Positions 1 through 16,538 of a stretch of DNA of 16,538 bases are shown one piece after another. The position numbers were made by a program, and so were the translations under genes. Each line of letters opens with the position of its first letter. The first letter of the stretch is position 1. The stretch is taken from the IMG/VR virus record IMGVR_UViG_2541047850_000009; one strand, 5' to 3'. The notes beneath the pieces are model-generated. The model made no database searches, had not been told where the DNA came from, and worked only from the letters and a program-made list of their open reading frames with translations. Source of the DNA: a virus (taxonomy: Duplodnaviria > Heunggongvirae > Uroviricota > Caudoviricetes).

Positions 1-1230
1 ATGAGCAGAGCACTTAACAAACTGAGCGATACACAGCTGAGGAAAATCAACGGCACACCCGCCCAAAAAACAGCCTTTCTTAATGACGGTGGAAACCTGA
101 GCGTCAGGCATTCAACCAGTGGCCTTTTAACCTGGTATTTCACTTACAGGGCCGGAACGGGAAGGGGGGCACCACCGGAACGCATTAAGCTGGGAAATTA
201 TCCTGATCTGAGCCTGAAATCAGCCAGGGAAAAAGCCGCCCAGTGTCGCGCATGGCTGGCAGAGGGGAAAAATCCACGTCATGAGCTTAATTACACCGTA
301 CAGGAAGCGTTAAAGCCGGTAACGGTTGGTGATGCGCTCACCTACTGGCTTGAGTCGTACGCAAAGGAAAACCGTGTGGATTATGACCCACTGAAAAAGC
401 GGCTAAATAATCACGTAATACAGCACATTGGCCCTATGCCGCTGGATAAATGCGAGCTACGGCACTGGCTGGCCTGTTTTGATCGGGTGGCAAAGCAAGC
501 CCCTGTTTCCGCCGGGTTCCTGCTACAGACATGCAAGCAGGCGCTTAAGTTCTGCCGGAAGCGGCGCTATGCAATCAGCAACGTTCTTGATGATATGAGT
601 GTGGCGGACGTTGGGAAAAAACCGGATATAAGCGAGCGTGTCTTAAGCAACAAAGAACTTGGCGAATTATTGCAGGCACTGGACAAAAAAATATTCTCCC
701 CCTACTACATCGCGCTAATCCGCCTCCTGATTGTGTTCGGATGCCGGACGGTCGAACTTAGGTTATCGGAGATCGGCGAGTGGGATTTTACCGAAATGCT
801 CTGGACTGTTCCGAAGGAGCACAGCAAAACGAAGGTAGCCATATTCCGGCCCATACCGGAAGCAATACTGCCGTTCGTCACGCAGCTGGTGGAGCAGAAC
901 AAGCACACGGGCTTATTGCTGGGGGAAGTGAAACAGGAAACAAGCGTGTCGCAGTACGGCAGATTAGCGCACAGGAGGCTAAATCACCCTCACTGGTCAC
1001 TACATGACATCCGGCGCACCTTTACAACGATGCTGAACGATTTAGGCGTGGATCCTCACGTCGTGGAGCAGCTTACAGGCCACCAGATGCCAGGAATGCA
1101 GCGAGTTTATAATCATTCCCGTTATCTGGATGCTAAACGCAATGCGCTGGATATGTGGATGGAGCGGTTAGGGATACTGGCGGGAACACATGAAAACGTA
1201 ACCGCACTACCAGTAGCCAGAAGAAAATAA
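1..1230 (+). CDS. int: Tyrosine-type site-specific integrase (P4 / CP4-57-like)
   Basis: 409-aa ORF. C-terminal catalytic region carries the conserved tyrosine-recombinase pattern (HDIRRTF, LTGHQ, terminal VYNHSRY with the catalytic Tyr). N-terminal domain is typical of P4-type integrases. Confidence 0.9.
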   Translation: MSRALNKLSDTQLRKINGTPAQKTAFLNDGGNLSVRHSTSGLLTWYFTYRAGTGRGAPPERIKLGNYPDLSLKSAREKAAQCRAWLAEGKNPRHELNYTVQEALKPVTVGDALTYWLESYAKENRVDYDPLKKRLNNHVIQHIGPMPLDKCELRHWLACFDRVAKQAPVSAGFLLQTCKQALKFCRKRRYAISNVLDDMSVADVGKKPDISERVLSNKELGELLQALDKKIFSPYYIALIRLLIVFGCRTVELRLSEIGEWDFTEMLWTVPKEHSKTKVAIFRPIPEAILPFVTQLVEQNKHTGLLLGEVKQETSVSQYGRLAHRRLNHPHWSLHDIRRTFTTMLNDLGVDPHVVEQLTGHQMPGMQRVYNHSRYLDAKRNALDMWMERLGILAGTHENVTALPVARRK

Positions 1231-1593: not shown

Positions 1594-1782
1594 GTGTTAA
1601 GCACTGATCGGTTTATACGTGAAAAAGAATGCAAAAAACTAACCGGCCTTAGCCGTACGTGTCGCTACCGCCTGGAAAAGGCCGGACAATTCCCATCACG
1701 TCGTAAACTTGGCGGTCGTTCCGTTGGCTGGTCTTTATCCGAGGTTCTGGCCTGGAAGGATAGCTGCAAGGCAGTTCATTAA
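1594..1782 (+). CDS. alpA: AlpA/Vis-family winged-helix transcriptional regulator (excisionase-like)
   Basis: 62-aa ORF with GTG start 5 nt after AAAGGGGG. The motif LTGLSRTCRYRLEKAGQFP...KLGGRSVGW matches the AlpA-family pattern (GLSRSTIYR...G.FP.P.KLG.R.V.W). Confidence 0.85.
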   Translation: MLSTDRFIREKECKKLTGLSRTCRYRLEKAGQFPSRRKLGGRSVGWSLSEVLAWKDSCKAVH

Positions 1783-2051
1783 TCACGCTGGCGGCACACA
1801 GCCGCCACACATCAATCATCTGAACACAGAGCTATAACCATGAAGATTGAATATACGCCAGAACGTGGGCGGGGATTCGTTCGCCCTGGTGAAACTGAAA
1901 AACAACAAAATTGGGGTTTTTCAGGCATAACAAAAAGCGCCCAGTTACCTGAGCGCCTTTGTGAACGATTAACCTGCTGCACAAAAAATAAATATGAGCA
2001 TTGGAATTATATCAACTGTGTGAAGAAGCGCCACAATTGCCGGATTACAGG

Positions 2052-2080
2052 CAAAAAAAATGCGACCTATGATGGTCGCA
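2052..2080 (-). terminator. Rho-independent terminator for the leftward small-gene unit
   Basis: 7-bp stem TGCGACC / GGTCGCA with a 6-nt loop (2061..2080). On the minus strand it is followed by a run of 8 T (plus-strand A-run 2053..2060). Confidence 0.5.
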
Positions 2081-2156
2081 AAAATATGATATACATGTTG
2101 ATTACACTATGCATCGACAACGATGCCACATTTTTGGCTGGTTGGCAAATCTGTCA

Positions 2157-2342
2157 TCAGGGCGGACAACAACGCCACGATCTCATCTTTCTTGGGCAAT
2201 TTTTAAGAAAATCCTCAAGGGCAAATCTTTTTGGCCTTGCTTCCTGTTCATGGTCAGGCATTTCATCCATTTCTCTTAATTTTTTTTCTACCTGTCTTTC
2301 AAGTATGGATAATGCGATTTCCCGTAATTCTTCGTTGTTCAT
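2157..2342 (-). CDS. Hypothetical small protein (61 aa)
   Basis: ATG preceded by a strong RBS (CAGGAG, 6-nt spacer). Charged helical-looking N-terminus (MNNEELREIALSILERQVEKKLREMDEM). No family recognised. Confidence 0.5.
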   Translation of the reverse strand: MNNEELREIALSILERQVEKKLREMDEMPDHEQEARPKRFALEDFLKNCPRKMRSWRCCPP

Positions 2343-2399
2343 TGTCTACTCCTGTAAAGAAATGCGCCGTAGTTCCTCACACCACGGCGCTGATAGTTT

Positions 2400-2504
2400 T
2401 TATCCTTTGGGTTCTATGCCGCGTTGCTGTAATTCTTTGCGGATTATTCGCTTTATCCAGGCAGCAAGAGAATCATCGCCGTCCTGTTGTTGTGCCTTTT
2501 CCAT
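2400..2504 (-). CDS. Hypothetical very small protein (35 aa, MEKAQQQDGDDSLAAWIKRIIRKELQQRGIEPKG)
   Basis: Below the ORF-track size cut-off and found by hand translation. Same frame as and just upstream of 2157..2342 (minus), separated by two stops. Weak RBS (GGGAAAAG). Confidence 0.3.
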   Translation of the reverse strand: MEKAQQQDGDDSLAAWIKRIIRKELQQRGIEPKG

Positions 2505-2572
2505 CTTTTCCCGTAAGTCAGGATCTAAACGGAACTGGAACGGAGGATTACCACGCCTTTCGTTTTTGTGTA

Positions 2573-2628
2573 TTGACACGTTAATTACACCTCATGTAAT
2601 GTATTTATGTGTAATGACACATTACACA
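2573..2628. promoter_or_regulatory. Divergent control region with operator-like inverted repeats and a TTGACA -35-like hexamer
   Basis: TTGACA at 2573..2578. Inverted repeat ATTACA-N5-TGTAAT at 2584..2600. Perfect 21-bp palindrome TGTGTAATG-ACA-CATTACACA at 2608..2628. Four TGTAAT/ATTACA half-sites in total, placed between leftward (2504) and rightward (2709) gene starts. Confidence 0.45.
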
Positions 2629-2708
2629 CAATCAACACAAAAAGCAAAGCCCCGCACTGTAGGAGCAGTAACGGGGCTTCTAACCAACAACGTAAACTAG
2701 GAGCCGTT

Positions 2709-2906
2709 ATGGTTGCCGTAAATCATATACCACACCTTGTACACACACAAACGGCCTTTGTGTGGCGTTTTCTGGCACTGAGTGCCGGAGAATCTCAAAT
2801 CATCCACGTAACCGCCTGGACGGAACGCGAAGCGCGTAGCCGTTGCCCGTCCGGTTGTGTTGCTGTATTCGCCGCCCGTATTCGTCAGGGGTCACATCAT
2901 GCGTAA
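2709..2906 (+). CDS. Small conserved protein (66 aa), paralog of the C-terminus of the next gene; possibly Ash/Icd-like (family assignment from memory, unverified)
   Basis: ATG with AGGAG RBS at a 5-nt spacer. Shares FVWRF...VTA.TEREAR...ARIRQG..HA with 2899..3363. Stop overlaps the next start (ATGCGTAA). Confidence 0.6.
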   Translation: MVAVNHIPHLVHTQTAFVWRFLALSAGESQIIHVTAWTEREARSRCPSGCVAVFAARIRQGSHHA

Positions 2907-3363
2907 AAACCGCTTGCAAAAAATTATCACGGGGCTGTATGCTTCCCCCGTCGCCCACATGGCGACCGGGTTTGACAGCCTGAATACATCTGGCGGACAG
3001 CCGCCCACATCCGATAAGCGGTTTTTTTGTGTCCGTAAACCTACCCATACCCGCATTATGGCGGGGCGTAACGGGGGAGCCTTTGTGCTCGCTGGTTTCC
3101 AGATGACCAGTCTGTCAACCCTGTTACGTCTCGCCACCATGTTTGACAGCGTAGTAGCGAGACTCCTTAAAATTCATCTGGGAGCCTTTCACATGGCTGT
3201 ATCCGCACGCCCTTACTTTGTCTGGCGCTTTATGCAGTGCCTGACAGACAGCATTGCAATATTCACCGTTACCGCTGCCACTGAGCGCGAAGCACGCGCA
3301 CAGCTGCCGCACGCACATCTTATTTTTGTCGCCCGTATTCGTCAGGGGGTGTGCCATGCCTGA
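2899..3363 (+). CDS. Hypothetical protein (154 aa) whose C-terminal 50 aa is paralogous to the 2709..2906 product
   Basis: Translationally coupled start. C-terminus RPYFVWRF...TEREAR...ARIRQGVCHA. The same 19-nt DNA string cgcccgtattcgtcagggg occurs at 2873..2891 and 3330..3348. Confidence 0.6.
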   Translation: MRKNRLQKIITGLYASPVAHMATGFDSLNTSGGQPPTSDKRFFCVRKPTHTRIMAGRNGGAFVLAGFQMTSLSTLLRLATMFDSVVARLLKIHLGAFHMAVSARPYFVWRFMQCLTDSIAIFTVTAATEREARAQLPHAHLIFVARIRQGVCHA

Positions 3364-3676
3364 CATGACCAATTACCAGTACCTGATTAATCCGCATTTT
3401 AACTGTGAGCATGATATTGCTAAAAAGGTTTATTCCGCTGCGGATGGGGCTACTGACAATATATCAATGGCTGTTTCGTCAATTGGTAGCCTGATGTGGT
3501 ATGCGTCAGAAAATAAGGAATATGACGAAAAGGCCATGCGCATTGATATGGGTAATATCGGTTTGTTACTGGCAATGCTTGGGCAGTTTGATATTTCGTT
3601 ACGGTGCACCATTGAAAATGCCAAAGATGCATTAAATGCTATAAAGAAAGCGAATACTGATTTAAATCGGGGATAA
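3356..3676 (+). CDS. Hypothetical protein (106 aa), AT-rich gene
   Basis: ATG overlaps the preceding stop (ATGCCTGA); AGGGGG lies 8 nt upstream. GC content looks clearly lower than neighbouring genes by eye. No family recognised. Confidence 0.5.
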   Translation: MPDMTNYQYLINPHFNCEHDIAKKVYSAADGATDNISMAVSSIGSLMWYASENKEYDEKAMRIDMGNIGLLLAMLGQFDISLRCTIENAKDALNAIKKANTDLNRG

Positions 3677-3682
3677 ATAATC

Positions 3683-3982
3683 ATGAGAACATATTTATCT
3701 GGCTTGACTGCCAGCGGTTATGCACACCCCCAAATTATCCCCGGCGCTATTTATCTGGATAAGAACGGTAACAGAGTAACGGTAAAAGAACTGATGTTTG
3801 ACCGAGTGTATTTTATCCGTGATGGCTATTCATTTCTTAGTTCGCTGAACGTGGAGATCTTTATTAGCAGATTCAGGCGGGAAATCCCGCTTTCCAGAAA
3901 TAACCATGTGTCATGTATGGATGTTGATAAAAAACTACAGGAACTAAAAAACATGATTGCCGCGTGGAGAGAGCAGAAATGA
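3683..3982 (+). CDS. Hypothetical protein (99 aa), AT-rich gene
   Basis: ATG 6 nt after the previous stop. Its stop overlaps the primase start (ATGA). No family recognised. Confidence 0.5.
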   Translation: MRTYLSGLTASGYAHPQIIPGAIYLDKNGNRVTVKELMFDRVYFIRDGYSFLSSLNVEIFISRFRREIPLSRNNHVSCMDVDKKLQELKNMIAAWREQK

Positions 3983-6102
3983 AAAAAGCGCCAAATTTAA
4001 AACACCAGCCACGTGACAAAATGACGGAAGTCATCATTTTTGCGGGTAGTGATGCGTGGGCACATGCGAAGCAGTGGCAGGAACAGGACGGGCGACTGGC
4101 TGGCGACAGCGTGCCTCCTGTCTGGCTTGGAGAGCAACAACTTGCCGAACTGGATAAGCTGCAAATTGTGCCGGAAGGCCGAAAATCAGTACGCATATTC
4201 AGGGCCGGACATCTTGAGCCAGTAATGATCAAGGCGATTGGTCAGAAGCTGGCGGCGGCAGGCGTACAGGATGCAAATTTTTACCCTGATGGAATGCACG
4301 GTCAGGAGGTGGAGAACTGGCGCGAATATCTGGCCCGTGAGCGGCAGAATCTTTCTGATGGTCTGGTTATTGAGTTTCCGGTAAAGAAAAAAGATACCGG
4401 AAGCCATAGCGATGACGAATTAAAGCCACGCGTTGAAAGTCGCGCCGATGGTGTTTTCTGGGTAACGCCCAAAGTGGATAAGCAGTCAGGCGAAATTATC
4501 CGGCCTGAGACGTGGTTATGTTCTCCGCTTGAACTACTGGGAACGGGGACGATCGGTAAAGAGCATTACCGCGTGATGCGCTGGAAAAAAACCGCAAACC
4601 ATGAAGTCATCACAATGGCGATCCCGTGTGGTGGTATCGGCGACCGTGACGGCTGGCGGTTACTTAAAGATCACGGGCTGAACGTGACAACCAACGGCAA
4701 ATACAGGGCAATCCTGGCGGACTGGATGCAGTTAAGCGGAAGCCATGAGGAATGGCAGTTAAGCACAACAACGGGCTGGCATTTTGGCGCGTACATCATG
4801 CCGGACGGTTCGATCATTGGTGAATCTGAAAAACCGATCCTGTTTACCGGAAAAAGCGCCGCGATTAACGGTTATTCCGTGGCGGGCACGGCGGATGGCT
4901 GGCGCGACAGCGTGGCGCGGCTGGCTGGCGGTAATGCCTCAATGATGCTGGGTGTGGCAACGTCACTGGCAGCGCCTTTAATTGGCCTTGTGGGTGCTGA
5001 CGGCTTCGGGGTGCATCTTTTCGAACAGTCATCGGCAGGTAAGACCACCACGCAGAACATCGCATCAAGTTTATGGGGAGAGCCGGACGCGCAGCGGCTG
5101 ACCTGGTACGGCACGGCGTTAGGTATTGCCAATGAGGCCGAGGCCCATAATGACGGGCTTTTACCACTGGATGAGATAGGCCAGGCCGGAAATGCGCGGG
5201 AAGTGTCAACGTCTGCTTATACGCTGTTTAACGGTTCAGGGAAATTGCAGGGGGCGAAGGATGGCGGCAACAGGGAGATCAAACACTGGCGAACGGTGGC
5301 AATCAGCACCGGAGAAATGGACGTTGAGACATTCCTCAAAAGTGAGGGGATAAAAGTTAAGGCGGGGCAGCTTGTCCGACTGCTTAACGTTCCGATGGAA
5401 AAAGCCACGAAATTTCACGAATACAGCAACGGTAAGGAACATGCTGACGCGTTAAAGGATGCCTGGACAGCAAATCACGGGGCGGCGGGTCGTGAGTGGG
5501 TTAAATGGCTGGCAGGCCACCAGCAGGAGGCAAAGGATACGGTAAGGGAATGCCGCGAACGGTGGCGCAACCTGATACCGGAGAGCTACGGCGAGCAGGT
5601 CCACCGCGTGGGTGAACGTTTCGCCATACTGGAGGCCGCGCTTGTGCTTTCCGGTCATGTAACTGGCTGGGTCGTGCAGGAATGCCGCGACGCGATACAG
5701 CATAACTTTAATGCCTGGGTGAAGGAGTTCGGCACGGGTAACAGGGAATTTAAACAGATGGTTGAACAGGCTGAGGCGTTTTTGTCGTCGTTTGGGTTTA
5801 GCCGCTACCTTCCGTACCCCAATACAGATGAGCGTGATTTACCGATTAAAGAGCTTGCCGGATACAGAAAAGGGAGCATTCGCAACGAAGATGACGAGAT
5901 GCGCTATTACACGTTCCCGCACGTGTTTGAGAGTGAGATAGCGAAGGGATTTAATCCGGCGCATTTTGCGCGTGCCCTGGATGCTGCCGGAATGCTGGAG
6001 AAGGGAAGCGATCGCCGATACAAAAAAAAGGCGCTGGGCAAGATTGGGGGTAAGCAGCATGTTTTTTACGTGCTGATGTTCCAGCCTGATGATGAAGATT
6101 AA
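3979..6102 (+). CDS. Primase-helicase type replication protein (DUF927 / D5-like NTPase, P4 alpha-like)
   Basis: 707-aa ORF. P-loop-like FEQSSAGKTT and Walker-B-like LLPLDEIG in the central region. Sits immediately upstream of an iteron array. Domain family assigned from memory of typical satellite annotations. Confidence 0.75.
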   Translation: MKKAPNLKHQPRDKMTEVIIFAGSDAWAHAKQWQEQDGRLAGDSVPPVWLGEQQLAELDKLQIVPEGRKSVRIFRAGHLEPVMIKAIGQKLAAAGVQDANFYPDGMHGQEVENWREYLARERQNLSDGLVIEFPVKKKDTGSHSDDELKPRVESRADGVFWVTPKVDKQSGEIIRPETWLCSPLELLGTGTIGKEHYRVMRWKKTANHEVITMAIPCGGIGDRDGWRLLKDHGLNVTTNGKYRAILADWMQLSGSHEEWQLSTTTGWHFGAYIMPDGSIIGESEKPILFTGKSAAINGYSVAGTADGWRDSVARLAGGNASMMLGVATSLAAPLIGLVGADGFGVHLFEQSSAGKTTTQNIASSLWGEPDAQRLTWYGTALGIANEAEAHNDGLLPLDEIGQAGNAREVSTSAYTLFNGSGKLQGAKDGGNREIKHWRTVAISTGEMDVETFLKSEGIKVKAGQLVRLLNVPMEKATKFHEYSNGKEHADALKDAWTANHGAAGREWVKWLAGHQQEAKDTVRECRERWRNLIPESYGEQVHRVGERFAILEAALVLSGHVTGWVVQECRDAIQHNFNAWVKEFGTGNREFKQMVEQAEAFLSSFGFSRYLPYPNTDERDLPIKELAGYRKGSIRNEDDEMRYYTFPHVFESEIAKGFNPAHFARALDAAGMLEKGSDRRYKKKALGKIGGKQHVFYVLMFQPDDED

Positions 6103-6124: not shown

Positions 6125-6463
6125 TGCGGGTTATGCGGGTTATCCTGTGTATAAGTGTATTAAGTGCATGAATATAAAGGAAACCAATAACCCGCACGTA
6201 ACCCGCAAAAGGGCATTTATAACCCGCAAAAGCACGATTATAACCCGCTGGCGAATAACTGAAGTAACACCGGACAGTCATGCGTAACCCGCAGAAAAAA
6301 ACCGTTTGCGGGTTATTTTGAGCGTTTTGCGGGTTACGTGGTGAGCAAATAATAAACAGGGCGTTTTGCAAAATACTGATATAAAAGGATAAAAAATGGT
6401 TAGCACGCTAAGATAACCCAATAACCCGCATAACCCGCACATGTTTCTATATATATATAAATT
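6125..6463. repeat. Replication origin candidate: iteron array (9-bp TAACCCGCA in both orientations) plus AT-rich tract
   Basis: TGCGGGTTA at 6125, 6134, 6307, 6328. TAACCCGCA at 6188, 6199, 6220, 6285, 6422, 6431, with degenerate copies at 6241 and 6414. AT-rich tttctatatatatataaatt at 6443..6463. Confidence 0.7.
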
Positions 6464-6473
6464 GAGGTGGCAA

Positions 6474-6725
6474 ATGACCAGAACACGCAGAGACAGAACA
6501 GAGCCAAAATATAAAGCGTTAGACATGACTGAGCACACCTTAAAGGTGGCAATCAGAACGATAGACCGCCACACGCGGGAAGGATACGCGAAGGAACATC
6601 CCGACCTGATAAGCGCATTCATGACCACGACGGCGGCAAACTTTGCCACGCTGACAGAGCGGGAGATTGCCGAAGCGGAACAGGTAACAACCATCAACGT
6701 TAAAACCGGAGAGCAGACAGCATGA
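6474..6725 (+). CDS. Hypothetical basic small protein (83 aa)
   Basis: ATG after GAGGTG. Stop overlaps the ssb start (ATGA). Lies between the origin and ssb. No family recognised. Confidence 0.5.
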   Translation: MTRTRRDRTEPKYKALDMTEHTLKVAIRTIDRHTREGYAKEHPDLISAFMTTTAANFATLTEREIAEAEQVTTINVKTGEQTA

Positions 6726-7132
6726 CAGCACAGATAGCGGCTTACGGGCGGCTGGTGGACGACCCGCAGGTAAAACAGACCAGCAAGGGCACACCGATGA
6801 CGCTGGCGCGTATGGCGGTATCTTTGCCATGCAGCCAGGCACAGGACGGACAGGCGACGTTATGGTTATCGGTCATCGCATTTGGCAAACAGGCCGACCA
6901 ACTGGCAGGACATGAGAAAGGCAACGTAATCAGCGTATCCGGCGTGATGCAGATAAGCCAGTGGACCGGACAGAACGGGGAGACGCGTCAGGGTTATCAG
7001 GTCATTGCAGACAGCGTAATCAGTGCCCGTGCGGCACGTCCTGGCGGGAACAGACGCAAAACCACAGGCACACAGGGTAATCAGCCACCAGCGGGAGACG
7101 ATGACCCCTACGGTGATGATATTCCGTTCTGA
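6722..7132 (+). CDS. ssb: Single-stranded DNA-binding protein
   Basis: 136-aa ORF. OB-fold-like N-terminal region, glycine/glutamine-rich linker, and the diagnostic acidic tail DDDPYGDDIPF. Confidence 0.85.
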   Translation: MTAQIAAYGRLVDDPQVKQTSKGTPMTLARMAVSLPCSQAQDGQATLWLSVIAFGKQADQLAGHEKGNVISVSGVMQISQWTGQNGETRQGYQVIADSVISARAARPGGNRRKTTGTQGNQPPAGDDDPYGDDIPF

Positions 7133-7144
7133 GGGGTGGGGACG

Positions 7145-7417
7145 ATGGTACATGACCGCATAGCGGAAGAACTGGAGGCGAAAGGCTTTTACCGGAGAGC
7201 GTCGGCGCGATGGGGTGAAGTCATGCAACTGGTGGAGACAGACAAGGAACGGCATCACATCACGATGCGACGGCTGGAATGTTCCAGGAAGGCACAGAGG
7301 CCACCGGAGCCGCCGGATAATTACGGAGACCTGAAAAAGGCGGTCGATCGCACTTATGCCGAAATGGGTATGGATGGTGCTGGTGATGAAATATGGCGAA
7401 ATTACCAGGACAGATAA
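7145..7417 (+). CDS. PerC-family-like transcriptional regulator
   Basis: 90-aa ORF from the ATG at 7145 (the track start at 7136 is GTG). N-terminal motif DRIAEELEAKGFYRRASARWGEV resembles the PerC/Pch signature (AE.LE..G.WRRAA.RW) as I recall it. Confidence 0.5.
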   Translation: MVHDRIAEELEAKGFYRRASARWGEVMQLVETDKERHHITMRRLECSRKAQRPPEPPDNYGDLKKAVDRTYAEMGMDGAGDEIWRNYQDR

Positions 7418-7423
7418 TCACAC

Positions 7424-7446
7424 AGCCGGAGCAATCCGGCTTTTTG
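7424..7446 (+). terminator. Rho-independent terminator after the PerC-like gene
   Basis: Stem GCCGGA / TCCGGC with GCAA tetraloop, followed by TTTTT. Confidence 0.6.
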
Positions 7447-7464
7447 TCATGTTTTGTAAATTAT

Positions 7465-7494
7465 TTGTTCGTGGTTGTTCCACGTTGTTCGCTG
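7465..7494 (+). repeat. Three head-to-tail 10-bp repeats TTGTTCgtgg TTGTTCcacg TTGTTCgctg; candidate operator array about 210 bp upstream of the capsid gene
   Basis: Exact 10-bp periodicity. Matches the reverse complement of 1299..1323 at 23 of 25 positions and 14939..14953 at 15 of 15. Confidence 0.5.
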
Positions 7495-7566
7495 ACCGGA
7501 TCGGCATATTTTACCCGAACTGAATCATGATTATTCTCGCCAGTGGTGCCAGGACGCTGGGGCCAC

Positions 7567-7614
7567 TTTCCCGCCTGTTAATGTGCTCGCCAATATTCAT
7601 TACCAGGCGGGAAA
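7567..7614 (+). promoter_or_regulatory. 11-bp inverted repeat TTTCCCGCCTG ... CAGGCGGGAAA (26-nt spacer) in the capsid-operon leader
   Basis: Read directly from the sequence. Could be an RNA stem-loop or a dyad protein-binding site. Confidence 0.3.
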
Positions 7615-7704
7615 ATGATCGGTGCGATTGCTGATTTCCTTATGAAAAACGGTTGAGTGTTTGCCGCGTCCTGGAGTTCCTTACTTAACTTCAGGACTTT
7701 TTTT

Positions 7705-8862
7705 ATGCCGAGAATAATCGAATTACGCCAGCAGAAAACCGCCATTAAAAATCAGATGCGCGACATGCTGGAGAACGCGGAAAAAGAAAACCGCAGCCTT
7801 AACGATGCTGAGGGCGCAAAATTTGACGAATTACGCGCTAAAGCTGAATCCCTCGATAAAGACATTTCCCGCCTTGAAGCCATTGCAGACGAAGAGCGCA
7901 GTAAACCAGGCAAAAACAGCCAGACCACTGACCCCGCAGAACTACGCAACTACATTCTGACAGGTGAAACCCGCGCATTAAGTACAGGCGTTCCCGCTGA
8001 TGGTGGTTATACCGTTATCCCCGAACTGAACACCGAAATCATGCGAATGCTGGCGGATGAGTCCACCATGCGCCGCATCTGTACCGTGAAGAAAATCAGC
8101 AGCAACGAGTTTAAGCAGCTTGTTTCCGCTGGCGGTGCGACCGTTAACCACGGTGAAGAGGGTAAGACACGCGAACAGACCAGCACCCCGCAGATTAACG
8201 AGGTGAGCATTAAGCTGTATCCGGTCTATGCGTACCCGCGCACCACACAGGAAATCGTGGATTTTTCCGATGTGGACATCCTTTCATGGCTGACGGGTGA
8301 GATTGGCGACACCTTCACGGAAACCGAAGAAAGCGATCTGGTTGTGGGCGACGGTGACAAAAAAGCAAAAGGTTTTTTATCCGTACCCCGTGCAGAGAAG
8401 AACGACAAAGAGCGTGATTTTGGTACGTTGCAGGTAATTAAACCTTCCGAATCTCTGGCGTGGACATCTGCGGACCCGCTGATCGACCTGAAATTTGCAT
8501 TACGTAAAAAATACCGCAAAAACGCGGTCTGGGTGGTTAACTCCACGACGGCGGCAAAACTTCAGAAGGTGAAGAACGCGAACGGTGATTACATCTGGCG
8601 CGACCGTTTACAGGCGGGTGATCCTGATACGTTACTGGGCCTTCCGGTCGAATATCTGGAGTTTATGCCGGATAACGTTATTGCCCTGGGTGACTTCAAA
8701 CGCGGTTACTACATTGTTGATCACGAAACAGGTGTTCGCACCAGACCGGACAACCTCACAGAGCCGGGCTTCATCAAAATTTTCACGCAGAAATATTTAG
8801 GCGGTGGCGTGGTGGATTCGAACGCGATCAAGATTCTGGAACTGCCACAGGACGACGATTAA
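7705..8862 (+). CDS. Major capsid protein, HK97 fold, with N-terminal scaffold-like (delta) coiled-coil domain
   Basis: 385-aa product. N-terminal 90 aa is coiled-coil-like and charged (IIELRQQKTAIKNQMRDMLENAEK...). Followed by a prohead protease gene. Start chosen at the ATG at 7705 rather than the upstream track start. Confidence 0.88.
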   Translation: MPRIIELRQQKTAIKNQMRDMLENAEKENRSLNDAEGAKFDELRAKAESLDKDISRLEAIADEERSKPGKNSQTTDPAELRNYILTGETRALSTGVPADGGYTVIPELNTEIMRMLADESTMRRICTVKKISSNEFKQLVSAGGATVNHGEEGKTREQTSTPQINEVSIKLYPVYAYPRTTQEIVDFSDVDILSWLTGEIGDTFTETEESDLVVGDGDKKAKGFLSVPRAEKNDKERDFGTLQVIKPSESLAWTSADPLIDLKFALRKKYRKNAVWVVNSTTAAKLQKVKNANGDYIWRDRLQAGDPDTLLGLPVEYLEFMPDNVIALGDFKRGYYIVDHETGVRTRPDNLTEPGFIKIFTQKYLGGGVVDSNAIKILELPQDDD

Positions 8863-8873
8863 CAGCATACAGA

Positions 8874-8901
8874 AGGGGCTTAAAAGCCCCTTTAGTGTTT
8901 T
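8874..8901 (+). terminator. Stem-loop after the capsid gene (partial terminator or attenuator, or stabilising hairpin)
   Basis: Stem AGGGGCT / AGCCCCT with TAAA loop, followed by ttagtgtttt. Confidence 0.4.
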
Positions 8902-8916
8902 ATGGGTGAAAAAATT

Positions 8917-9474
8917 ATGAAGAGTATGGAAATCCGGTCATCGGAAATCACTACCAGCGGAGCCGGTACGCTGACGGGCTACGTTGTTCGCTGGGATAAG
9001 CTTTCAGAACTGCTATGGGGGGAGTTTTACGAAAAATTCCAGCGGGGGGCGTTTACTGAGTGGCTTGCGGCGGGTAATGACGTTCGCGGCCTGTATGAGC
9101 ATGACCACAGCATGTTACTGGGGCGCACCCGTTCCGGCACGCTGAAACTGGAAGAGGACGAAACAGGGTTACGCTTTGAACTGACCCCACCGGATACCAG
9201 TACAGGGCGCGACGTTATCGAACTGGTTAAGCGTGGGGACATCTCGGGGATGAGCTTTGGCTTTCGCTCCCGTAAGGATGTATGGGATACCACAACAGAT
9301 CCATGCGTGCGCACCGTGCTGGTGGCGGAACTATACGAAATTACCGTTACATCCGTACCGGCTTACCCTGATTCCGGCGTGGAGCTGGCCCGCCGCTCCC
9401 TGTACGAGCAGCACCCCGAAAAAATGCCGCGTGCGGATAATCGCCGCTGGTGGGCGGATTTAGCGGGGGTGTGA
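8917..9474 (+). CDS. Prohead (capsid maturation) protease, HK97 family
   Basis: About 185 aa with HK97-protease-like length and position directly after the capsid gene. Alternative in-frame start at 8902. Confidence 0.8.
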   Translation: MKSMEIRSSEITTSGAGTLTGYVVRWDKLSELLWGEFYEKFQRGAFTEWLAAGNDVRGLYEHDHSMLLGRTRSGTLKLEEDETGLRFELTPPDTSTGRDVIELVKRGDISGMSFGFRSRKDVWDTTTDPCVRTVLVAELYEITVTSVPAYPDSGVELARRSLYEQHPEKMPRADNRRWWADLAGV

Positions 9475-9475
9475 T

Positions 9476-10687
9476 ATGTGGCCTTTCAGAAGAAAAAAAG
9501 AGCAGCGCAGCATGACGCTTGATGAGTTTATGGCGCTGGCTGGCACATCGAACACGGGGGCGGGTGAGTACGTATCATCGGGGACAGCGGAATCACTGCC
9601 CGCCGTCATGAACGCCGTGACGGTCATCTCTGAGGCGGTGGCTACCATGCCGTGTTACCTGTACCTGGTACGCAATGAGAAGGGGAAGGAGGCCCGAGAG
9701 TGGTTTGATTCTCATCCGGTCGATCACATCCTCAACGAGCGCCCGAACGCATGGCAAACCCCCTACCAGTTTAAGCGAATGATGATCCGCCACTGCCTGT
9801 TAAACGGTAATGCTTATGCGGTGATTCGGTGGGGGCGTGATGGTTTTCCGGTGGCTTTACATCCTTACCCGCCGCAGTCGGTGAACGTGGAGCAGACAGG
9901 TGAGCATAACTGGCGCTACTGCATCACTGACGCCTACACCGGAAACACCCGCAACTATTTACCGTGGGAGGTTCTCCACCTTCGTTACTCCACGGATGAC
10001 GGTTTTATGGGGCGCTCACCTGTAACCATCTGCCGCGAATCGCTGGGGCTTGGGCTGGCCCAACAACGCCACGGCGCGAGCGTGATGCGTGATGGCATGA
10101 TGGCGGCAGGGGTTATCACGTCAGGCGAGTGGCTGGACGGCGTGAAGGGTAAACAGGCATTAGCCGCACTGGAACGCTACAAAGGGGCCAGAAACGCCGG
10201 AAAAACGCCCATCCTTGAAGGGGGTATGAGCTATCAGCAGCTGGGCATGAGTAATCAGGATGCTGAATGGCTGGCCTCCCGTCGCTTCACCATTGAAGAC
10301 ATCGCCCGAATGTTCAACGTCTCGCCGATTTTTTTGCAGGAATACAGCAACAGCACCTACAGCAATTTCAGCGAGGCAAGCCGCGCATTTCTCACCATGA
10401 CGATGCGCCCGTGGCTGGCGAACTTTGAGCAGCAGATAAAAAACGCCCTGCTGGTGGCCTCGCCTGTACCTGGTATCCGGTATCAGGTGGAGTTTGACAG
10501 CGCGGACCTGTTACGGGCCACACCTGGCGAACGCTTTGCCACCTATGAACGCGGCATCAAATCCGGCGTTATGTGCCCGAACGAAGCCCGCGAACGTGAA
10601 GGGCTGTCCCCGCGTGATGGTGGTGATGAGTTCAGCCAGGCATGGAAACAGGAAGTAAAAATCAGCGAGGGAGAAAAACCGGAATGA
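9476..10687 (+). CDS. Portal protein (HK97-type)
   Basis: 403-aa ORF with portal-like length and composition. Start is 1 nt after the protease stop. Flanked by head genes. Confidence 0.85.
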   Translation: MWPFRRKKEQRSMTLDEFMALAGTSNTGAGEYVSSGTAESLPAVMNAVTVISEAVATMPCYLYLVRNEKGKEAREWFDSHPVDHILNERPNAWQTPYQFKRMMIRHCLLNGNAYAVIRWGRDGFPVALHPYPPQSVNVEQTGEHNWRYCITDAYTGNTRNYLPWEVLHLRYSTDDGFMGRSPVTICRESLGLGLAQQRHGASVMRDGMMAAGVITSGEWLDGVKGKQALAALERYKGARNAGKTPILEGGMSYQQLGMSNQDAEWLASRRFTIEDIARMFNVSPIFLQEYSNSTYSNFSEASRAFLTMTMRPWLANFEQQIKNALLVASPVPGIRYQVEFDSADLLRATPGERFATYERGIKSGVMCPNEAREREGLSPRDGGDEFSQAWKQEVKISEGEKPE

Positions 10688-11022
10688 ACATAGGGCGACT
10701 GCGTGACAGGATAACGATTCAGACCCTGAAACAGACCAGGGATATAACCGGCGAAATACTCGAAACGTGGGTGGACGGTCACACACTCTGGGCAAGCGTG
10801 AACATGATCAGCAGCAAGGAGGCCATTTCATCGGGTGCAGAACTGGCGACTGGAACGGTAAGGATATGGATACGCTACAGGAAGGACATCAACGCCACCA
10901 GCCGGATAAAGGTCAATACGGGGCCGCTGGCGGGGCGTGTACTGAATATCATCGGGCAGCCGCTGCCGGATGCCGCCAGGACACGCCTTGAAATTCTTTG
11001 TCGTGAGGGCGCGGAAAAATGA
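10684..11022 (+). CDS. Head closure / head-tail joining protein
   Basis: 112 aa. N-terminal GRLRDRITIQ...TRD...W matches the head-closure family pattern (G.LR.R.TIQ....TRD). ATGA overlap with the portal stop. Confidence 0.75.
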   Translation: MNIGRLRDRITIQTLKQTRDITGEILETWVDGHTLWASVNMISSKEAISSGAELATGTVRIWIRYRKDINATSRIKVNTGPLAGRVLNIIGQPLPDAARTRLEILCREGAEK

Positions 11023-11315
11023 CAGAAGAACTTATCACCCTGGAAGAAGTGAAACTCCATTGCCGCATCGATGGCGACGAGGAAGACCAGTTAATCAGCG
11101 GATACATTGCCGCATCGCTTGAGGCGTGCCAGATACATATAGGCAGGCGCTTTGATGACGGGCTGGCGTTCACGCCAGCCATAAAGATTGGCTGCATGAT
11201 GTTTATCGCTCACCTGTATGAAAATCGCCAGATTGTCGCGGATAACGCAAAAACACGCGTACCCATGACGATAGGCGCACTCTGGACGGCTTACCGTGAT
11301 GTGGGGGTGTACTGA
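11019..11315 (+). CDS. gp6-like head-tail connector protein
   Basis: 98 aa. N-terminal ITLEEVKLHCRIDGDEEDQLISGYIAAS matches the gp6-like connector pattern (ITLEE.K.HLRID.DDED.LI...I.AA). ATGA overlap with the previous gene. Confidence 0.7.
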   Translation: MTEELITLEEVKLHCRIDGDEEDQLISGYIAASLEACQIHIGRRFDDGLAFTPAIKIGCMMFIAHLYENRQIVADNAKTRVPMTIGALWTAYRDVGVY

Positions 11316-11755
11316 TGCCGTGGCAACCATTAAGACGATGCACAGAACCAGGCTGTAACAGGCGCGTGAAGTCCGGCAAGTGTGAGGAGCACAGGCGGGC
11401 GGCATGGCGTGCAGAGGATGCCAGACGAGGACACCGCCGCGCGCGTGGGTACTCCAGACAGTGGGACAAATACCGCGCCATGTATCTGAGTAAAAACCCG
11501 TTATGCGTGCGATGCCTTGAGAAGGGGATATATACGCCCGCCGTGGTGGTGGATCACATTATCCCCATCGATGGCGGCGATGATGTTCTCTTCTGGCCCG
11601 AATGGAACCATCAACCATTGTGCCAGGCGTGTCATAACCAGAAAACGAAATGGCTTGATCTGGCAACAAAAAGCAAGCGTGCCGCAGGTGGATTTCGTGA
11701 AGAGGAAGAACGGGCCGCTAACCGCAATAACTGGATGTATGACGCTGATGAATGA
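11315..11755 (+). CDS. HNH endonuclease (terminase-associated)
   Basis: Paired Cys motifs (CTEPGC, CVRC, CQACHNQ) and the His-Asn-His core VVDHIIP...WNHQPLC. Sits immediately upstream of terS/terL, as in cos-type HK97-like phages. Confidence 0.88.
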   Translation: MPWQPLRRCTEPGCNRRVKSGKCEEHRRAAWRAEDARRGHRRARGYSRQWDKYRAMYLSKNPLCVRCLEKGIYTPAVVVDHIIPIDGGDDVLFWPEWNHQPLCQACHNQKTKWLDLATKSKRAAGGFREEEERAANRNNWMYDADE

Positions 11756-11921
11756 GCGGAAACAAAACCGCCTTATCCGTGGACTTATAAGGCAGCGTGA
11801 CGCATGGAAGACACAGGAAACAGGGCATAAAGATAAAGCGTCAGGACGCGCAGAACGCATCACAGCGAAGCGATTAACCGACCGTGACCGCGAGGTTATG
11901 GAATGTTTCCGCAATCGCTGA
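11748..11921 (+). CDS. Possible small basic protein (57 aa, MNERKQNRLIRGLIRQRDAWK...)
   Basis: Only the part of track ORF 11517..11921 that does not overlap HNH. No convincing RBS. May instead be non-coding DNA holding the packaging site. Confidence 0.22.
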   Translation: MNERKQNRLIRGLIRQRDAWKTQETGHKDKASGRAERITAKRLTDRDREVMECFRNR

Positions 11922-11924
11922 TGA

Positions 11925-12044
11925 GGCTGTATGACGGGGTGGGGGGCGTTTTCAGGACAAACCCGACCCCGCCGGGCACCGACCGCCTCCTCAAATTTTT
12001 ATGCACGGGAATTTTTTGAAAAATAATCTGGCGAAAAAATAAGC
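11925..12044. other. Candidate cos / packaging-initiation region upstream of terS
   Basis: G-rich (gacggggtggggggcg) then C-rich (cccgaccccgccgggcaccgaccgcctcc) segment, then an AT-rich tract. Lies between HNH and terS, where HNH-dependent cos sites usually sit. Confidence 0.3.
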
Positions 12045-12401
12045 ATGTCAAGACCACCGAAAGCCCCCGCCTACCTGGATGACATCGCCGTGAAGCAGTG
12101 GCGGGAAAAATCGCGGCAGCTTGCGGAACGGGGAGACCTGACCCCCGCCGACTGGAGCAATCTGGAACTGTATTGTGTCAACTACTCCATTTACCGGAAA
12201 GCCGTTGCAGACCTTGCGGCGCGCGGGTTCAGCATTGTTAACAGTCAGGGCGGCGAGAGCAGAAACCCCGCATTAAGCGCAAAATCCGACGCTGAAAGGG
12301 TGATGATAAAAATGGCCTCCTTGCTCGGTTTTGACCCGATAAGCCGCCGTAAAAATCCACCGGAAACAGAAGAAGAGGACGAGCTTGACCGCCTGGAATA
12401 A
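12045..12401 (+). CDS. terS: Terminase small subunit (P27-family-like)
   Basis: 118 aa, directly upstream of and overlapping terL. Acidic C-terminal tail. N-terminus (AVKQWREKSRQLAERGDLTPADWSNLELYC) resembles P27-type TerS. Confidence 0.75.
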   Translation: MSRPPKAPAYLDDIAVKQWREKSRQLAERGDLTPADWSNLELYCVNYSIYRKAVADLAARGFSIVNSQGGESRNPALSAKSDAERVMIKMASLLGFDPISRRKNPPETEEEDELDRLE

Positions 12402-14046: not shown

Positions 14047-14059
14047 TGAGGTCAGCAGC

Positions 14060-15077: not shown

Positions 15078-16538
15078 TTATTCATCTTTCGGCGCAGAAT
15101 GCTGGCGACCAAAAATCACTTCCATCCGCGCACCGCCCAGCATGCTCTCTCCGGCGACGATTTTACCCTCATATTGCTCGGTGATTTCGCGGGCTACCGC
15201 CAGCCCCACACCTTGCCCAGGGCGTAAAGTATCAACCCGTTGACCACGGTCGAAAATGACCTCTCGCTTGCTTAATGGAATACCGGGGCCATCATCCTCG
15301 ACCACAATATAGAGATGCTCGTCGGTTTGCCTTGCAGAAATTTCGACAAACTCGAGGCAATATTTACAGGCGTTATCCAGCACGTTGCCCATCACTTCGA
15401 CAAAATCATTCTGCTCACCAACAAAGCTGATTTCTGGCGAGATATCGAGAGAGATATTGACCCCTTTGCGTTGATACACTTTGTTCAGCGCCGAGGTGAG
15501 ATTGTCCAACAGTGGCGCGACCGGATGCAGCTCGCGGCTAAGCAATGTCCCGCCGCGCATACTGGCACGATGCAGGTAGTAGCCAATTTGCTGTGAAATG
15601 CGGCTGATTTGCTCCAGCATTACCGGCTCAGCATCACTGACGCTCATCTTCTCACTACGCAGAGAACGCAGCGTACTTTGCAGCACCGCCAGTGGCGTTT
15701 TCAGACTATGGGTCAGGTCGGTGAGCGTTGTACGATATTTGTCGTAACGTTCGCGTTCACTTTTTAACAGTCGGTTCAGGTTTCGTACCAGACTGGTCAG
15801 TTCTCGCGTTGTGGCTGGATTGAGCAATTCACGGTTATGTTCTTCCAGTTCGCGGACTTCTTTTGCCAGGGCTTCGATGGGGCGTAAACTCCACCAGGCG
15901 GCGACCCACAGCAGCGGGATCACTAACAGCAGATTGGCTGAGAGCACATAGATAAACCAGCTCCAGACCATATAGGAACTTTTTAGCTCCACCGGAATGG
16001 TATCCACCACCACAATGGTTAACTTTGGCATCCGCGATGTTGCCGGGTAGACGTTTACCGCCACCGAGTGGGTCATCTCCGCGTCGTCATCATCTTCCCG
16101 CACTTCCTGCAACTGTTGCTGTATCGAATGATCTCCACTCAGCAAGAGGCTGGTATCGTTAACATCCGCTTCAATTTCATGAAAACCATTCGATTTCAGC
16201 CAGTCAGGCTGGATCATCTTCATCAGCCAGGGCACGTCACGTTGCGCCCATAAAAGCTGCCCGTTCTCATCATAAATTAGTGTCATCGTGGGGCTTTGCT
16301 TGTCGATATTTTCGGGTAACTCGACATGCAACTTATTGTTTTCCCACTTCGCAAGGGTATAGAACAGATTGCTCTCGCCACGTAACAGCCGAAACGTGGT
16401 TTTATCGAAACTGACGCTATAACCGATCAGCGCAACCATTCCGTAGGCAAGCGAAAGCACCAATACTACTGCTGCCGTTGCTAACAGAAAACGTACCCGC
16501 AGCGAGAGCGGGAAAAAAAGATGCAGTAATTTTTTCAT
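15078..16538 (-). CDS. phoQ: Sensor histidine kinase PhoQ of the PhoP/PhoQ two-component system
   Basis: 486-aa product recognised as PhoQ: two transmembrane segments, a periplasmic sensor with the acidic patch [10 protein letters not shown], the H-box [12 protein letters not shown], and an ATPase domain with DDGPGIP and GQGVGL. Complete ORF with its start at the window end. Confidence 0.96.

Follow-up and report, generated by a model that had tools for sequence, protein, structure and literature searches.

A P1/P4-type leader with a putative C4 antisense RNA switch between two Icd-like genes in a phage satellite

Two similar small genes of the Icd/Kil type follow each other between positions 2709 and 3363 of the window, by which we mean the whole 16,538-nucleotide stretch of the Caudoviricetes record IMGVR_UViG_2541047850_000009, and the DNA linking them contains the gene of an antisense RNA of the C4 family. 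On balance, a capsid-forming satellite of the PICI type probably has its immunity and early-operon leader here, built like P1 immI (c4-icd-ant) and the P4 immunity region (seqA-CI-seqC-kil/eta-epsilon), with a block by C4 and an Eta-like escape from it. A first-pass annotation had taken the second gene for the shared domain fused to an extra 100-residue N-terminal region; because this N-terminal stretch is the DNA of an antisense RNA switch, we see no new fused protein but rather a P1/P4-type RNA-controlled operon leader. The RNA switch itself is known from phages, and the window appears to hold a variant of such a leader in a phage satellite.

The first gene, icd-1 (ORF A, 2709..2906; all features lie on the plus strand unless stated otherwise), is preceded by the Shine-Dalgarno (SD) sequence TAGGAG at 2698..2703 and would encode a 65-residue Icd/Kil-like leader cistron, whose stop codon overlaps ATG 2899 of the long ORF B (2899..3363, 154 residues), the counterpart of P4 eta. 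Residues 17-65 of A and 107-154 of B are identical at 25 of 49 positions (51%, BLASTP E 4e-12), so that the similarity to the ORF B C-terminus pointed out previously, which a proper alignment might have dissolved, is confirmed. Both products pass the curated cutoff of 25 bits (whole-protein HMM score) of NCBIfam NF033153 phage_ICD_like ('host cell division inhibitor Icd-like'), icd-1 with 64.7 bits over residues 17-60 and ORF B with 49.9 bits over residues 107-149, and the same model gives 52.6 bits for P1 Icd and 73.9 bits for the P4 'cI' CDS. PGAP also gives the Icd-like name to both ORFs in E. coli, annotating the 154-residue form as one protein, and the Icd/Ash naming proposed earlier was in this sense apt. 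Expression of P1 Icd or P4 Kil inhibits cell division or kills the cell. Pfam yielded no matches for either ORF and the PDB sequence search none either. An AF2 model of icd-1 from a 30-sequence alignment has a beta-beta-alpha-beta layout of modest confidence (pLDDT 68.7) and gives no functional lead, because the best Foldseek match in the PDB reaches only E 2.1. The two similar small genes themselves are real.

The similarity extends to the DNA. The window has two exact copies of the 19-mer CGCCCGTATTCGTCAGGGG, one at 2873..2891, where it codes for ARIRQG, and one at 3330..3348 (0.00 occurrences expected in 200 shuffles), and it extends to a 24-nucleotide repeat of 92% identity with a spacing of 457 bp, the left copy marking the left edge of a 457-bp unit that is present or absent among relatives. 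Both genes overlap the next start codon by 8 nucleotides, icd-1 with ATGCGTAA at 2899..2906 and ORF B with ATGCCTGA at 3356..3363. The repeated string and the repeated stop/start overlap had thus been read correctly, but the coupling junction is not peculiar to this pair, as 105 of 107 Icd-like genes in the relatives end with such an overlap, their partners being about nine different downstream genes. The DNA similarity between the two genes begins at the SD that precedes ATG 3193 inside ORF B (CTAGGAGCCGTT-ATG versus CTGGGAGCCTTTCAC-ATG), where no protein domain boundary lies. We attribute both the paralogy and the duplicated junction to the Icd 3' end acting as a conserved coupling adaptor and recombination point.

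What does the N-terminal part of the long ORF consist of? Codons 1-98 overlie a c4-a1b1 element, a terminator-like hairpin, the C4 antisense RNA gene and the target sites a2 and b2, and the peptide MAGRNGGAFVLAGFQMTSLSTLLRLATM is simply the C4 RNA gene read as codons. This gene, a homologue of the P4 CI RNA, lies at 3054..3141 and matches Rfam RF01695 over model positions 1-87 of 87 with 72.6 bits against a gathering score of 45 (E 8e-13). Its predicted fold (MFE −46.4 kcal/mol, z −6.4) leaves a' (CTGTCAA, 3112..3118) unpaired and places b' (CCAGATGA, 3099..3106) in a loop, and alignment to P1 c4 predicts the mature RNA at 3060..3138. RNAs of the C4 type are processed from the operon transcript to a stable RNA of about 77 nucleotides that represses in trans. 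Upstream lies the c4-a1b1 element with decoy or target sites, the equivalent of P4 seqA (2937..2986), which with 46.8 bits barely reaches the gathering score of 46.7 of RF03163; it includes site a1 (TTGACAG, 2972..2978), and site b1 (CATCTGG, 2987..2993) follows just past the match. The terminator-like hairpin (CAGCCGC..GCGG, then U7; 2998..3028), predicted by folding and conserved in P1, forms the 3' part of an isrK-like match (RF01394, 2950..3028) that with 35.2 bits stays under the gathering score of 50; isrK passes in P4 and in locus L002 with 60.8 and 66 bits. A putative internal sigma-70 promoter, TTGCAA-N18-TATGCT at 2914..2943, agrees with the consensus at 8 of 12 positions and aligns with the −35 and −10 hexamers of the P1 promoter P1c4 (former P51b); a consensus promoter scan picked up neither this promoter nor the one proposed upstream.

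Downstream of the RNA gene follow target site a2 (TTGACAG, 3143..3149) and target site b2 (TCATCTGG, 3174..3181), the latter overlapping the SD sequence GGGAG at 3180..3184. As in C4 RNAs, complements of a' and b' flank the gene on either side, and b2 lies at the ribosome binding site of the next gene; b' with b2 is the best duplex of b' within 2600..6100 (−22.0 kcal/mol). The ribosome binding site of icd-1 was rejected as a C4 target, neither b' nor a' forming a duplex there. Among 15 cassettes the triplets a1/a'/a2 and b1/b'/b2 covary three ways, with two a-types and five b-types changing together, and cognate b' with b2 duplexes range from −14.1 to −22.6 kcal/mol whereas non-cognate ones mostly lie between −5 and −12. 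The gene whose SD is covered, the short form of icd-2 (3193..3363, 56 residues, Icd/Kil-like by the NF033153 match at ORF B residues 107-149), is nested in frame in ORF B, and its stop codon overlaps ATG 3356. Its SD and ATG are invariant in 14 of 14 aligned non-P1 cassette relatives, P1 has its own SD under b2, and its position matches P1 icd and P4 kil. From its sequence context, ATG 3193 is the predicted C4-regulated start.

The closest model for the architecture is P4, in which C4 (CI) is found at 8420..8507 and isrK/a1b1 (seqA) at 8615..8705, and in which the Icd-like domain ends the old 'cI' CDS, a 65-residue ORF is nested and the frame is open over at least 211 codons. Common to both are the order isrK/a1b1 (seqA), terminator, CI RNA, SD and Icd-like gene of about 60 residues (Kil 65), the nesting of kil in a long open frame that starts in the overlap with the upstream gene's stop, the 8-nucleotide overlap with the next gene (GTGCGTAA with epsilon in P4, against ATGCGTAA and ATGCCTGA) and a primase gene downstream. 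In the window, ATG 2899 overlaps the icd-1 stop, no stop codon follows up to 3363 and ATG 3193 is in frame. According to PMC10111431, which cites Forti et al. 1999, P4 CI and seqA terminate the transcript of a promoter inside eta, Kil is a truncated form of Eta, and Eta, whose translation prevents termination, is coupled to the upstream alpA homologue. Since the P4 layout is the same (CI RNA inside eta, kil nested, coupling to the next gene), the long ORF would be Eta-like, and we infer its translation by this analogy. The two regions differ in the upstream coupled partner, which is vis/alpA in P4 and a second Icd/Kil-like gene beside a divergent ylcI-like gene here. Kil and icd-2 are very diverged, the sole P4 alignment being that of Kil with icd-1 at 27% identity. 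The C4 RNA of the window belongs to the P1 sequence subtype, and the long ORF therefore lacks a match to Pfam PF10554 Phage_ASH: neither ORF B nor 3058..3360 gives one at E ≤ 1. P4 Eta (82.4 bits) and the C4 translation of L002 (50.7 bits) exceed the threshold of 26 bits of this family, which therefore covers the seqA-CI region.

The P1 immI operon, in the account of Riedel and colleagues from 1993, reportedly runs a1 b1 - c4 RNA - a2 b2 - icd - ant1/ant2. The same order was given before (Citron and Schuster 1990), and the P1 record annotates a1, b1, c4, a2, b2, icd and ant1 in the order of the window. From a1 to a2, positions 2950..3155 share about 85-90% DNA identity with P1 immI; both have the same a' (CTGTCAA), their promoter hexamers align, and in each the icd SD is covered by b2 and icd overlaps the gene that follows. 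P1 differs in the specificity of b', b1 and b2 (CACTAAC, against CCAGATGA in the window), in having neither an upstream Icd gene nor an open frame across c4, and in the downstream gene, which is Ant in P1 and an unrelated 106-residue protein here. The isrK - orf45 - anrP region of Salmonella Gifsy-1 also has an isrK-like element and terminator upstream of a C4-like RNA (STnc1160). Its short orf45 overlaps this RNA and is translated, and an AUGA junction couples it to anrP (PMC4825925). The isrK match of the window stays under the gathering score (35.2 against 50); the short RNA of Gifsy-1 activates translation and does not repress it, with no involvement of an Icd-like gene (PMC4825925).

Upstream of icd-1 and divergent from it (minus strand, 2400..2579) lies a gene for a 59-residue regulator of the YlcI/YnfO family or Arc-like, a candidate repressor of the upstream promoter. 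It scores 20 bits with NCBIfam NF041551, under the cutoff of 30, and matches PHROG 228 'Arc-like repressor' at E 2.5e-6, and PGAP names a 96.8%-identical copy 'YlcI/YnfO family protein'. Between the two genes, a perfect 9-bp inverted repeat without strand assignment, TGTGTAATG-ACA-CATTACACA (2608..2628), probably marks an operator within the region of the upstream promoter. The icd-1 leader contains a GC-rich hairpin (2649..2677), which reads as an intrinsic terminator on the minus strand and whose stem is kept in relatives with three different loops. A 286-codon ORF at 1840..2700, which might be what is left of an alpA-coupled Eta, had no family matches. Downstream, the 106-residue gene (3356..3676), translationally coupled to icd-2 and placed where P1 has ant and P4 has epsilon, matches PHROG 15327 (unknown function) at E 2.5e-71 and nothing in Pfam; a relationship to P4 ORF106 was discarded, as a comparison revealed no similarity. 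The operon cargo continues with a DUF4222 gene (3683..3982) and a DUF927 primase-helicase gene (3964..6102), and by analogy to P4 this replication module, 3683..6102, is presumed to be under C4 control.

Although the region had been assigned to a P4-like satellite, this holds for its regulatory part, which is homologous to the P4 immunity region, and not for the element itself. P4-like satellites have sid, psu and delta but lack their own capsid genes; PHROG scans found major head, protease, portal, adaptor, HNH, TerS and TerL genes in the island, and none of sid, psu and delta among the scanned ORFs. With capsid, portal and terminase genes of its own, the island is cf-PICI-like rather than P4-like.

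How might such a leader work? If P1 and P4 are a guide, C4 would be processed from a transcript that starts at a weak constitutive promoter (2914..2943). Pairing of C4 with a2 and b2 would block translation of icd-2, and through loss of coupling and premature termination the 106-residue, DUF4222 and primase-helicase genes would stay silent. If the upstream promoter beside ylcI fires, icd-1 would be translated and ribosomes could re-initiate at 2899 and cross the target sites as the Eta-like long form. Ribosomes reading through the target sites would thereby let upstream-promoter transcripts escape C4. Rho-dependent polarity, RNase P processing and control by YlcI are borrowed from P1 and P4 or guessed.

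The escape depends on translation of the long ORF, and the same RNA module could also operate if the 154 codons were never translated, only the 56-residue icd-2 being real, ATG 2899 a relic of the adaptor at the Icd 3' end and icd-1 a mere leader of upstream-promoter transcripts. We consider this rather unlikely, though it is the rival that we take most seriously. The Icd of P1 is a short form, stop codons interrupt the ORF B frame across P1 c4, the amino acids of codons 1-98 follow the RNA elements and match no protein family, and locus L132 tolerates a frameshift in the cassette frame. The Icd frame crosses the cassette with no stops, against four and seven in the other two frames; a single frame would be open by chance in about 3% of cases, which is not negligible, and in each of three divergent cassette lineages the shuffle probability is 0.016-0.04. 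The shifted frame of type D variants is likewise stop-free by chance in the window, over 111 nucleotides, so that openness there required no extra change. Since nearly all of the ORF B sequence is fixed by RNA function, inherited openness is hard to tell from selection, and since the tandem units are closely related, the independent lineages are few. Against the untranslated ORF, 16 of 17 units preceded by an Icd-like gene keep the frame open, their ±1 indels always totalling 0 mod 3 and so restoring it. The frame is open in three divergent cassette lineages with an upstream coupled ORF and closed in P1 and L011, which both lack an upstream ORF. Moreover, P4 eta with the same layout is reported as translated and functional (PMC10111431), and Gifsy-1 orf45 is translated across a C4-like RNA and coupled to anrP (PMC4825925). 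The conserved open frame, the genuine shared C-terminal domain and the treatment of the 154-residue form as one protein by PGAP would also suit two true paralogous modulators, the second with an added N-terminal domain, that diversified towards helper or host functions, as the first-pass annotation proposed. This we regard as very improbable, because residues 1-98 are encoded by c4-a1b1, the terminator-like hairpin, C4 and a2/b2, vary by three-way RNA covariation and not by protein-like substitution, find no match in Pfam, NCBIfam or the PDB and are interrupted by stops in P1, and because b' targets the invariant SD and ATG at 3193.

The tandem could also be a neutral, transient recombination product of two satellites sharing the Icd 3' end, with icd-1 or the cassette on its way to being lost and no two-promoter logic behind it. 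The arrangement is indeed a minority form: icd-1 has 80 close relatives in IMG/VR, of which 14 carry a C4 cassette after the icd-1-like gene, and it occurs in 109 of 5426 complete E. coli genomes. NZ_CP042892, from a strain with the island, matches 2850..3200 at 100% identity. A narrow C4 pattern run over viral contigs returned 4 loci only, and a degenerate pattern over genome contigs was too loose, with 120 chance matches in unrelated phyla, so that L012-L131 were left out. Deletion forms and hybrid icd-1/icd-2 proteins are common. L005 lacks exactly 2873..3329, the 457-bp unit, and has a single icd of the icd-1 type coupled directly to the 106-residue gene; megablast breakpoints fall at 2892 and 3330 of the window, and L010 and L211 each have two units stacked. 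Yet the tandem persists with at least four b- and two a-specificities while its context stays the same (86-100% identity), which argues for long-lived diversification inside the arrangement, and in both genes SDs, frames and junctions are intact, so that we hold a merely transient origin to be improbable. The duplication, formerly seen as diversification of a modulator function, is better described as an RNA-immunity cassette being gained, lost and stacked as a module. Judged from these comparisons, the 457-bp unit (C4 cassette and icd-2) appears to be gained, lost or stacked at the Icd 3' end. A more speculative extension, which we offer tentatively and with less confidence than doubt, is that the Icd/Kil leader and C4 cassette form a portable, stackable 'RNA lock', the conserved Icd 3' end with its 19-bp repeat and stop/start overlap being a universal coupling adaptor and recombination joint at which satellites swap, delete or stack a/b specificities in series; an Icd cistron upstream, once coupled into the Eta-like frame, would provide a promoter-specific bypass of all locks.

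These results correct an annotation, as the 154-residue 'Icd-like protein' of 109 complete E. coli genomes, in which no RNA gene is annotated, consists for two thirds of the C4 immunity RNA and its target sites, and Pfam Phage_ASH likewise spans the seqA-CI RNA region of P4. Induction control in satellites of the PICI type is customarily discussed within the frame of AlpA. The analysis describes a capsid-forming PICI whose replication operon is headed by an RNA immunity switch of the P4/P1 type. It also brings together a natural set of at least five b-site and two a-site specificities in an otherwise near-identical background, with relatives carrying no, one or two cassettes, which suits the study of sRNA specificity, satellite cross-immunity and translation-dependent escape from antisense control. 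If the 'RNA lock' reading were true, it would give a general design rule for how satellites of the PICI and P4 type evolve immunity groups and helper responses.

The two Icd-like genes of the window, ORF A (icd-1, 2709..2906, plus strand, 65 aa) and ORF B (2899..3363, plus strand, 154 aa), are paralogous, as the first-pass annotation had claimed, residues 17-65 of ORF A and 107-154 of ORF B being identical at 25 of 49 positions in a protein alignment (E 4e-12). The duplicated DNA string and coupling junction described there are also borne out: the exact 19-mer CGCCCGTATTCGTCAGGGG, for which the chance expectation is none, occurs at both 2873..2891 and 3330..3348, and each ORF is closed by an 8-nt stop/start overlap with the next gene (ATGCGTAA at 2899..2906 and ATGCCTGA at 3356..3363). 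The DNA likeness opens at the Shine-Dalgarno sequence (CTAGGAGCCGTT-ATG in ORF A, CTGGGAGCCTTTCAC-ATG at the internal in-frame ATG 3193 of ORF B) and stops at the overlapping junction, so that the repeated unit is a Shine-Dalgarno sequence, a ~60-codon gene and a junction, not a protein domain joined to other sequence. The Icd-like naming given there agrees with NCBIfam NF033153 ('host cell division inhibitor Icd-like', cutoff 25 bits), which both ORFs pass with 64.7 and 49.9 bits, respectively; a Pfam profile search returned no matches for ORF A or ORF B. An AlphaFold2 model of the icd-1 product (pLDDT 68.7) has a beta-beta-alpha-beta layout, and a fold search with it gave no match.

What then occupies the DNA of the ~100 residues that had been taken for an extra N-terminal region of ORF B? 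Rfam places three RNA elements there: c4-a1b1 (2937..2986, 46.8 bits, gathering score 46.7), an isrK-like element (2950..3028) that has a hairpin with a U-tract and, at 35.2 bits, stays below the gathering score, and the C4 antisense RNA (3054..3141, 72.6 bits, gathering score 45). The ORF B peptide MAGRNGGAFVLAGFQMTSLSTLLRLATM is the translated C4 gene. The target sites a1 (TTGACAG, 2972..2978) and b1 (CATCTGG, 2987..2993) lie upstream of C4, a2 (TTGACAG, 3143..3149) and b2 (TCATCTGG, 3174..3181) downstream, b2 overlapping the Shine-Dalgarno GGGAG (3180..3184) of ATG 3193. In the predicted fold of the C4 segment (-46.4 kcal/mol, z -6.4) the pairing segment a' (CTGTCAA, 3112..3118) is unpaired and b' (CCAGATGA, 3099..3106) sits in a hairpin loop. 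Right after the icd-1 stop, AAAAACCGCTT (2905..2915) is complementary at 11 of 11 positions to AAGCGGTTTTT (3016..3026), the 3' arm of the terminator-like hairpin; it could work as an anti-terminator, expected only in transcripts from an upstream promoter, or the match could be chance, and the complementarity is not conserved in P4. Junction and cassette (2850..3200) were found in 109 of 5426 complete E. coli genomes at a coverage of at least 80%, and four of four genomes among the matches listed are annotated 'Icd-like (x2)'. At an E. coli locus 96.8% identical to the window, PGAP likewise calls both ORFs Icd-like, uses the 154-aa form and leaves the RNA gene out.

The RNA switch looks functional, with a specificity of its own. 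Among 15 aligned cassettes from IMG/VR loci, E. coli genomes and P1 there are two a-site types (TTGACAG/CTGTCAA and TTAGCAG/CTGCTAA) and five b-site types, each of which switches in concert at all three positions, and the Shine-Dalgarno sequence and ATG are unchanging in the 14 non-P1 cassettes. Predicted b' x b2 duplexes reach -14.1 to -22.6 kcal/mol for cognate and mostly -5 to -12 for non-cognate pairs. Within 2600..6100 the top predicted target of b' is b2 (-22.0 kcal/mol) and no C4 pairing is predicted at the icd-1 ribosome-binding site, which points to the 56-aa icd-2 starting at 3193 (3193..3363) as the C4-regulated gene and places icd-1 outside C4 control.

The same arrangement is known from phages P1 and P4. 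By tblastn, ORF B matches the P1 immI region, where the a1-to-a2 DNA is ~85-90% identical to the window and the record lists, in matching order, a1, b1, c4, a2, b2, icd and ant1; unlike in the window, stops within c4 and beyond a2 break the corresponding P1 frame, which leaves P1 Icd as the short protein only. In P4, Rfam identifies C4 as CI RNA (8420..8507) and isrK/c4-a1b1 as seqA (8615..8705), and an Icd-like domain (73.9 bits) ends the old 'cI protein' CDS; the label 'transcriptional repressor' carried by the PHROG families of both window ORFs probably goes back to this outdated annotation of P4 cI as a protein gene. The anatomy of P4 matches that of the window, long nested ORF included, with a 65-aa ORF with its own Shine-Dalgarno nested in a frame open for at least 211 codons, whose start codon overlaps the vis/ORF88 stop (ATGA) and whose end overlaps epsilon (GTGCGTAA). 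In P4, a constitutive promoter within eta yields a transcript that is terminated via CI-seqA pairing and processed to CI, Eta, the translation of which averts termination, is itself translated solely from an upstream promoter and in coupling with the alpA homologue, and Kil is the truncated form of Eta (PMC10111431, summarising Forti et al., 1999). C4 and isrK matches were also noted in Gram-negative PICIs (PMC10111431), and the C4-like RNA of Gifsy-1 is overlapped by an ORF that is translated, with coupling to the following gene (PMC4825925). Pfam Phage_ASH (PF10554) matches P4 Eta residues 22-146, that is the seqA-CI region (8365..8767, minus strand), and the literal translation of the C4 gene in the relative locus L002 (3556..3723), but not ORF B of the window; the 'protein' similarity therefore tracks the RNA subtype. 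PGAP 'ash family protein' calls sit on isrK plus C4, and what defines the Phage_ASH family is for the most part the DNA of RNA genes.

Is the long ORF translated? Between ATG 2899 and ATG 3193 the Icd frame has no stops, the other two frames four and seven. Of 17 cassette units downstream of an Icd-like gene, 16 keep the Icd frame open, the sole exception (L132) having lost one T from the U-tract; the +/-1 indels that variant cassettes carry at b1, the terminator loop, the b' loop and inside C4 always total 0 mod 3 (lengths 294, 294, 294 and 297 nt). The frame is open in each of three divergent cassette lineages (window type, L002 isrK type and P4), with a shuffle probability of 0.016-0.04 per lineage, a comparison that rests on few lineages. 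In all three the upstream ORF either overlaps the long-ORF start with its stop or is fused to the long ORF; in P1 and the relative locus L011 a promoter lies directly upstream and the frame has 2 and 8 stops, respectively. A further caveat is that the shifted frame in which type D variants are read is likewise stop-free in the window sequence. On balance, we lean slightly towards the long form being translated as an Eta-like bypass.

The cassette is gained, lost and stacked. In the relative locus L005, 95-97% identical on both flanks, exactly 2873..3329 (457 bp) is missing and a sole icd is coupled straight to the same 106-aa gene, and in many genomes megablast breakpoints map to window positions 2892 and 3330, at one end of each 19-mer. 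Of the 80 IMG/VR loci in which an icd-1-like gene is present, 66 carry a single icd, 13 carry icd-C4-icd and one carries icd-C4-icd-C4-icd, a layout also seen in L010. Two C4 cassettes of unlike type, isrK/ASH and P1, stand in series in L010 (3112..4105) and L211 (1629..2634), with different b specificity and an Icd-like gene after each. Hybrid proteins with an N-terminal icd-1 and a C-terminal icd-2 part were found, and L002 carries a different cassette within its icd-1-like gene. The conserved Icd 3' end thus appears to serve as a recombination joint. Across the loci examined, 105 of 107 Icd-like genes end in an overlapping start codon (-5, -8 or -1), and the genes that follow them are of about nine unrelated kinds, so that the coupling junction is a property of the Icd-like family.

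The island had been labelled a P4-like satellite, a label that does not fit its own major head, protease, portal, connector, TerS and TerL genes; by gene content its layout is that of a capsid-forming PICI. An integrase (1..1230), an AlpA/Vis-like excisionase (1594..1782) and a divergent YlcI/Arc-like gene (2400..2579) precede the Icd/C4 module, which is followed by a DUF4222 gene, a DUF927 primase-helicase, SSB and a full head and packaging set (6400..14050; HK97-type major head protein, protease, portal, head closure, adaptor, HNH, TerS, TerL). A YlcI-like gene stands upstream of icd-1 in only 26 of 80 relatives, so the upstream regulator itself is exchangeable. Between ylcI and icd-1, a perfect 9-bp inverted repeat, TGTGTAATG-ACA-CATTACACA (2608..2628), with more TGTAAT copies close by, is a likely operator of divergent promoters. 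A conserved GC hairpin in the icd-1 leader (2649..2677) retains its stem with three different loops among relatives; the window loop TAGGAGCAGTAACGG resembles the icd-1 ribosome-binding site TAGGAGCCGTTATGG, the minus strand reads as an intrinsic terminator immediately upstream of ylcI, and a 47-nt stretch around the hairpin also matches E. coli genomes without an annotated gene there. A 286-codon plus-strand ORF (1840..2700), antisense through ylcI, has no Pfam or PHROG match; its relatives are PGAP 'Icd-like, incomplete' pseudogenes, and in L002 the corresponding frame spans 432 codons without a stop between the alpA end and the icd stop. The 286-codon ORF may be what is left of an Eta-like frame coupled to alpA, or it may lie open antisense to ylcI by chance. 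At the other end of the island, a 486-aa minus-strand ORF (15078..16538) that continues past the window end, with a PHROG 857 match (unknown function, E 5e-159) and a weak match to a kinase-like family, may be accessory or defence cargo.

How could these elements work together? The promoter-like TTGCAA-N18-TATGCT (2914..2943), which aligns with P51b of P1, would drive C4 production, and C4 would block the icd-2 Shine-Dalgarno; the replication genes coupled to it downstream would thereby be silenced, in the manner of P1 and P4. From a promoter adjoining the 2608..2628 palindrome, transcripts would arise on which icd-1 is translated; ribosomes re-initiating at 2899 would traverse the target sites, and expression would escape C4. 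The finding is genuine, but most of it is accounted for by what is known of P1 and P4. New is that, in an island of the capsid-forming PICI type, a second Icd/Kil cistron replaces vis/alpA as the coupled upstream partner, and that the cassette is removable and stackable and comes in several specificities; the locus is also a clear example of an RNA gene hidden by protein annotation.
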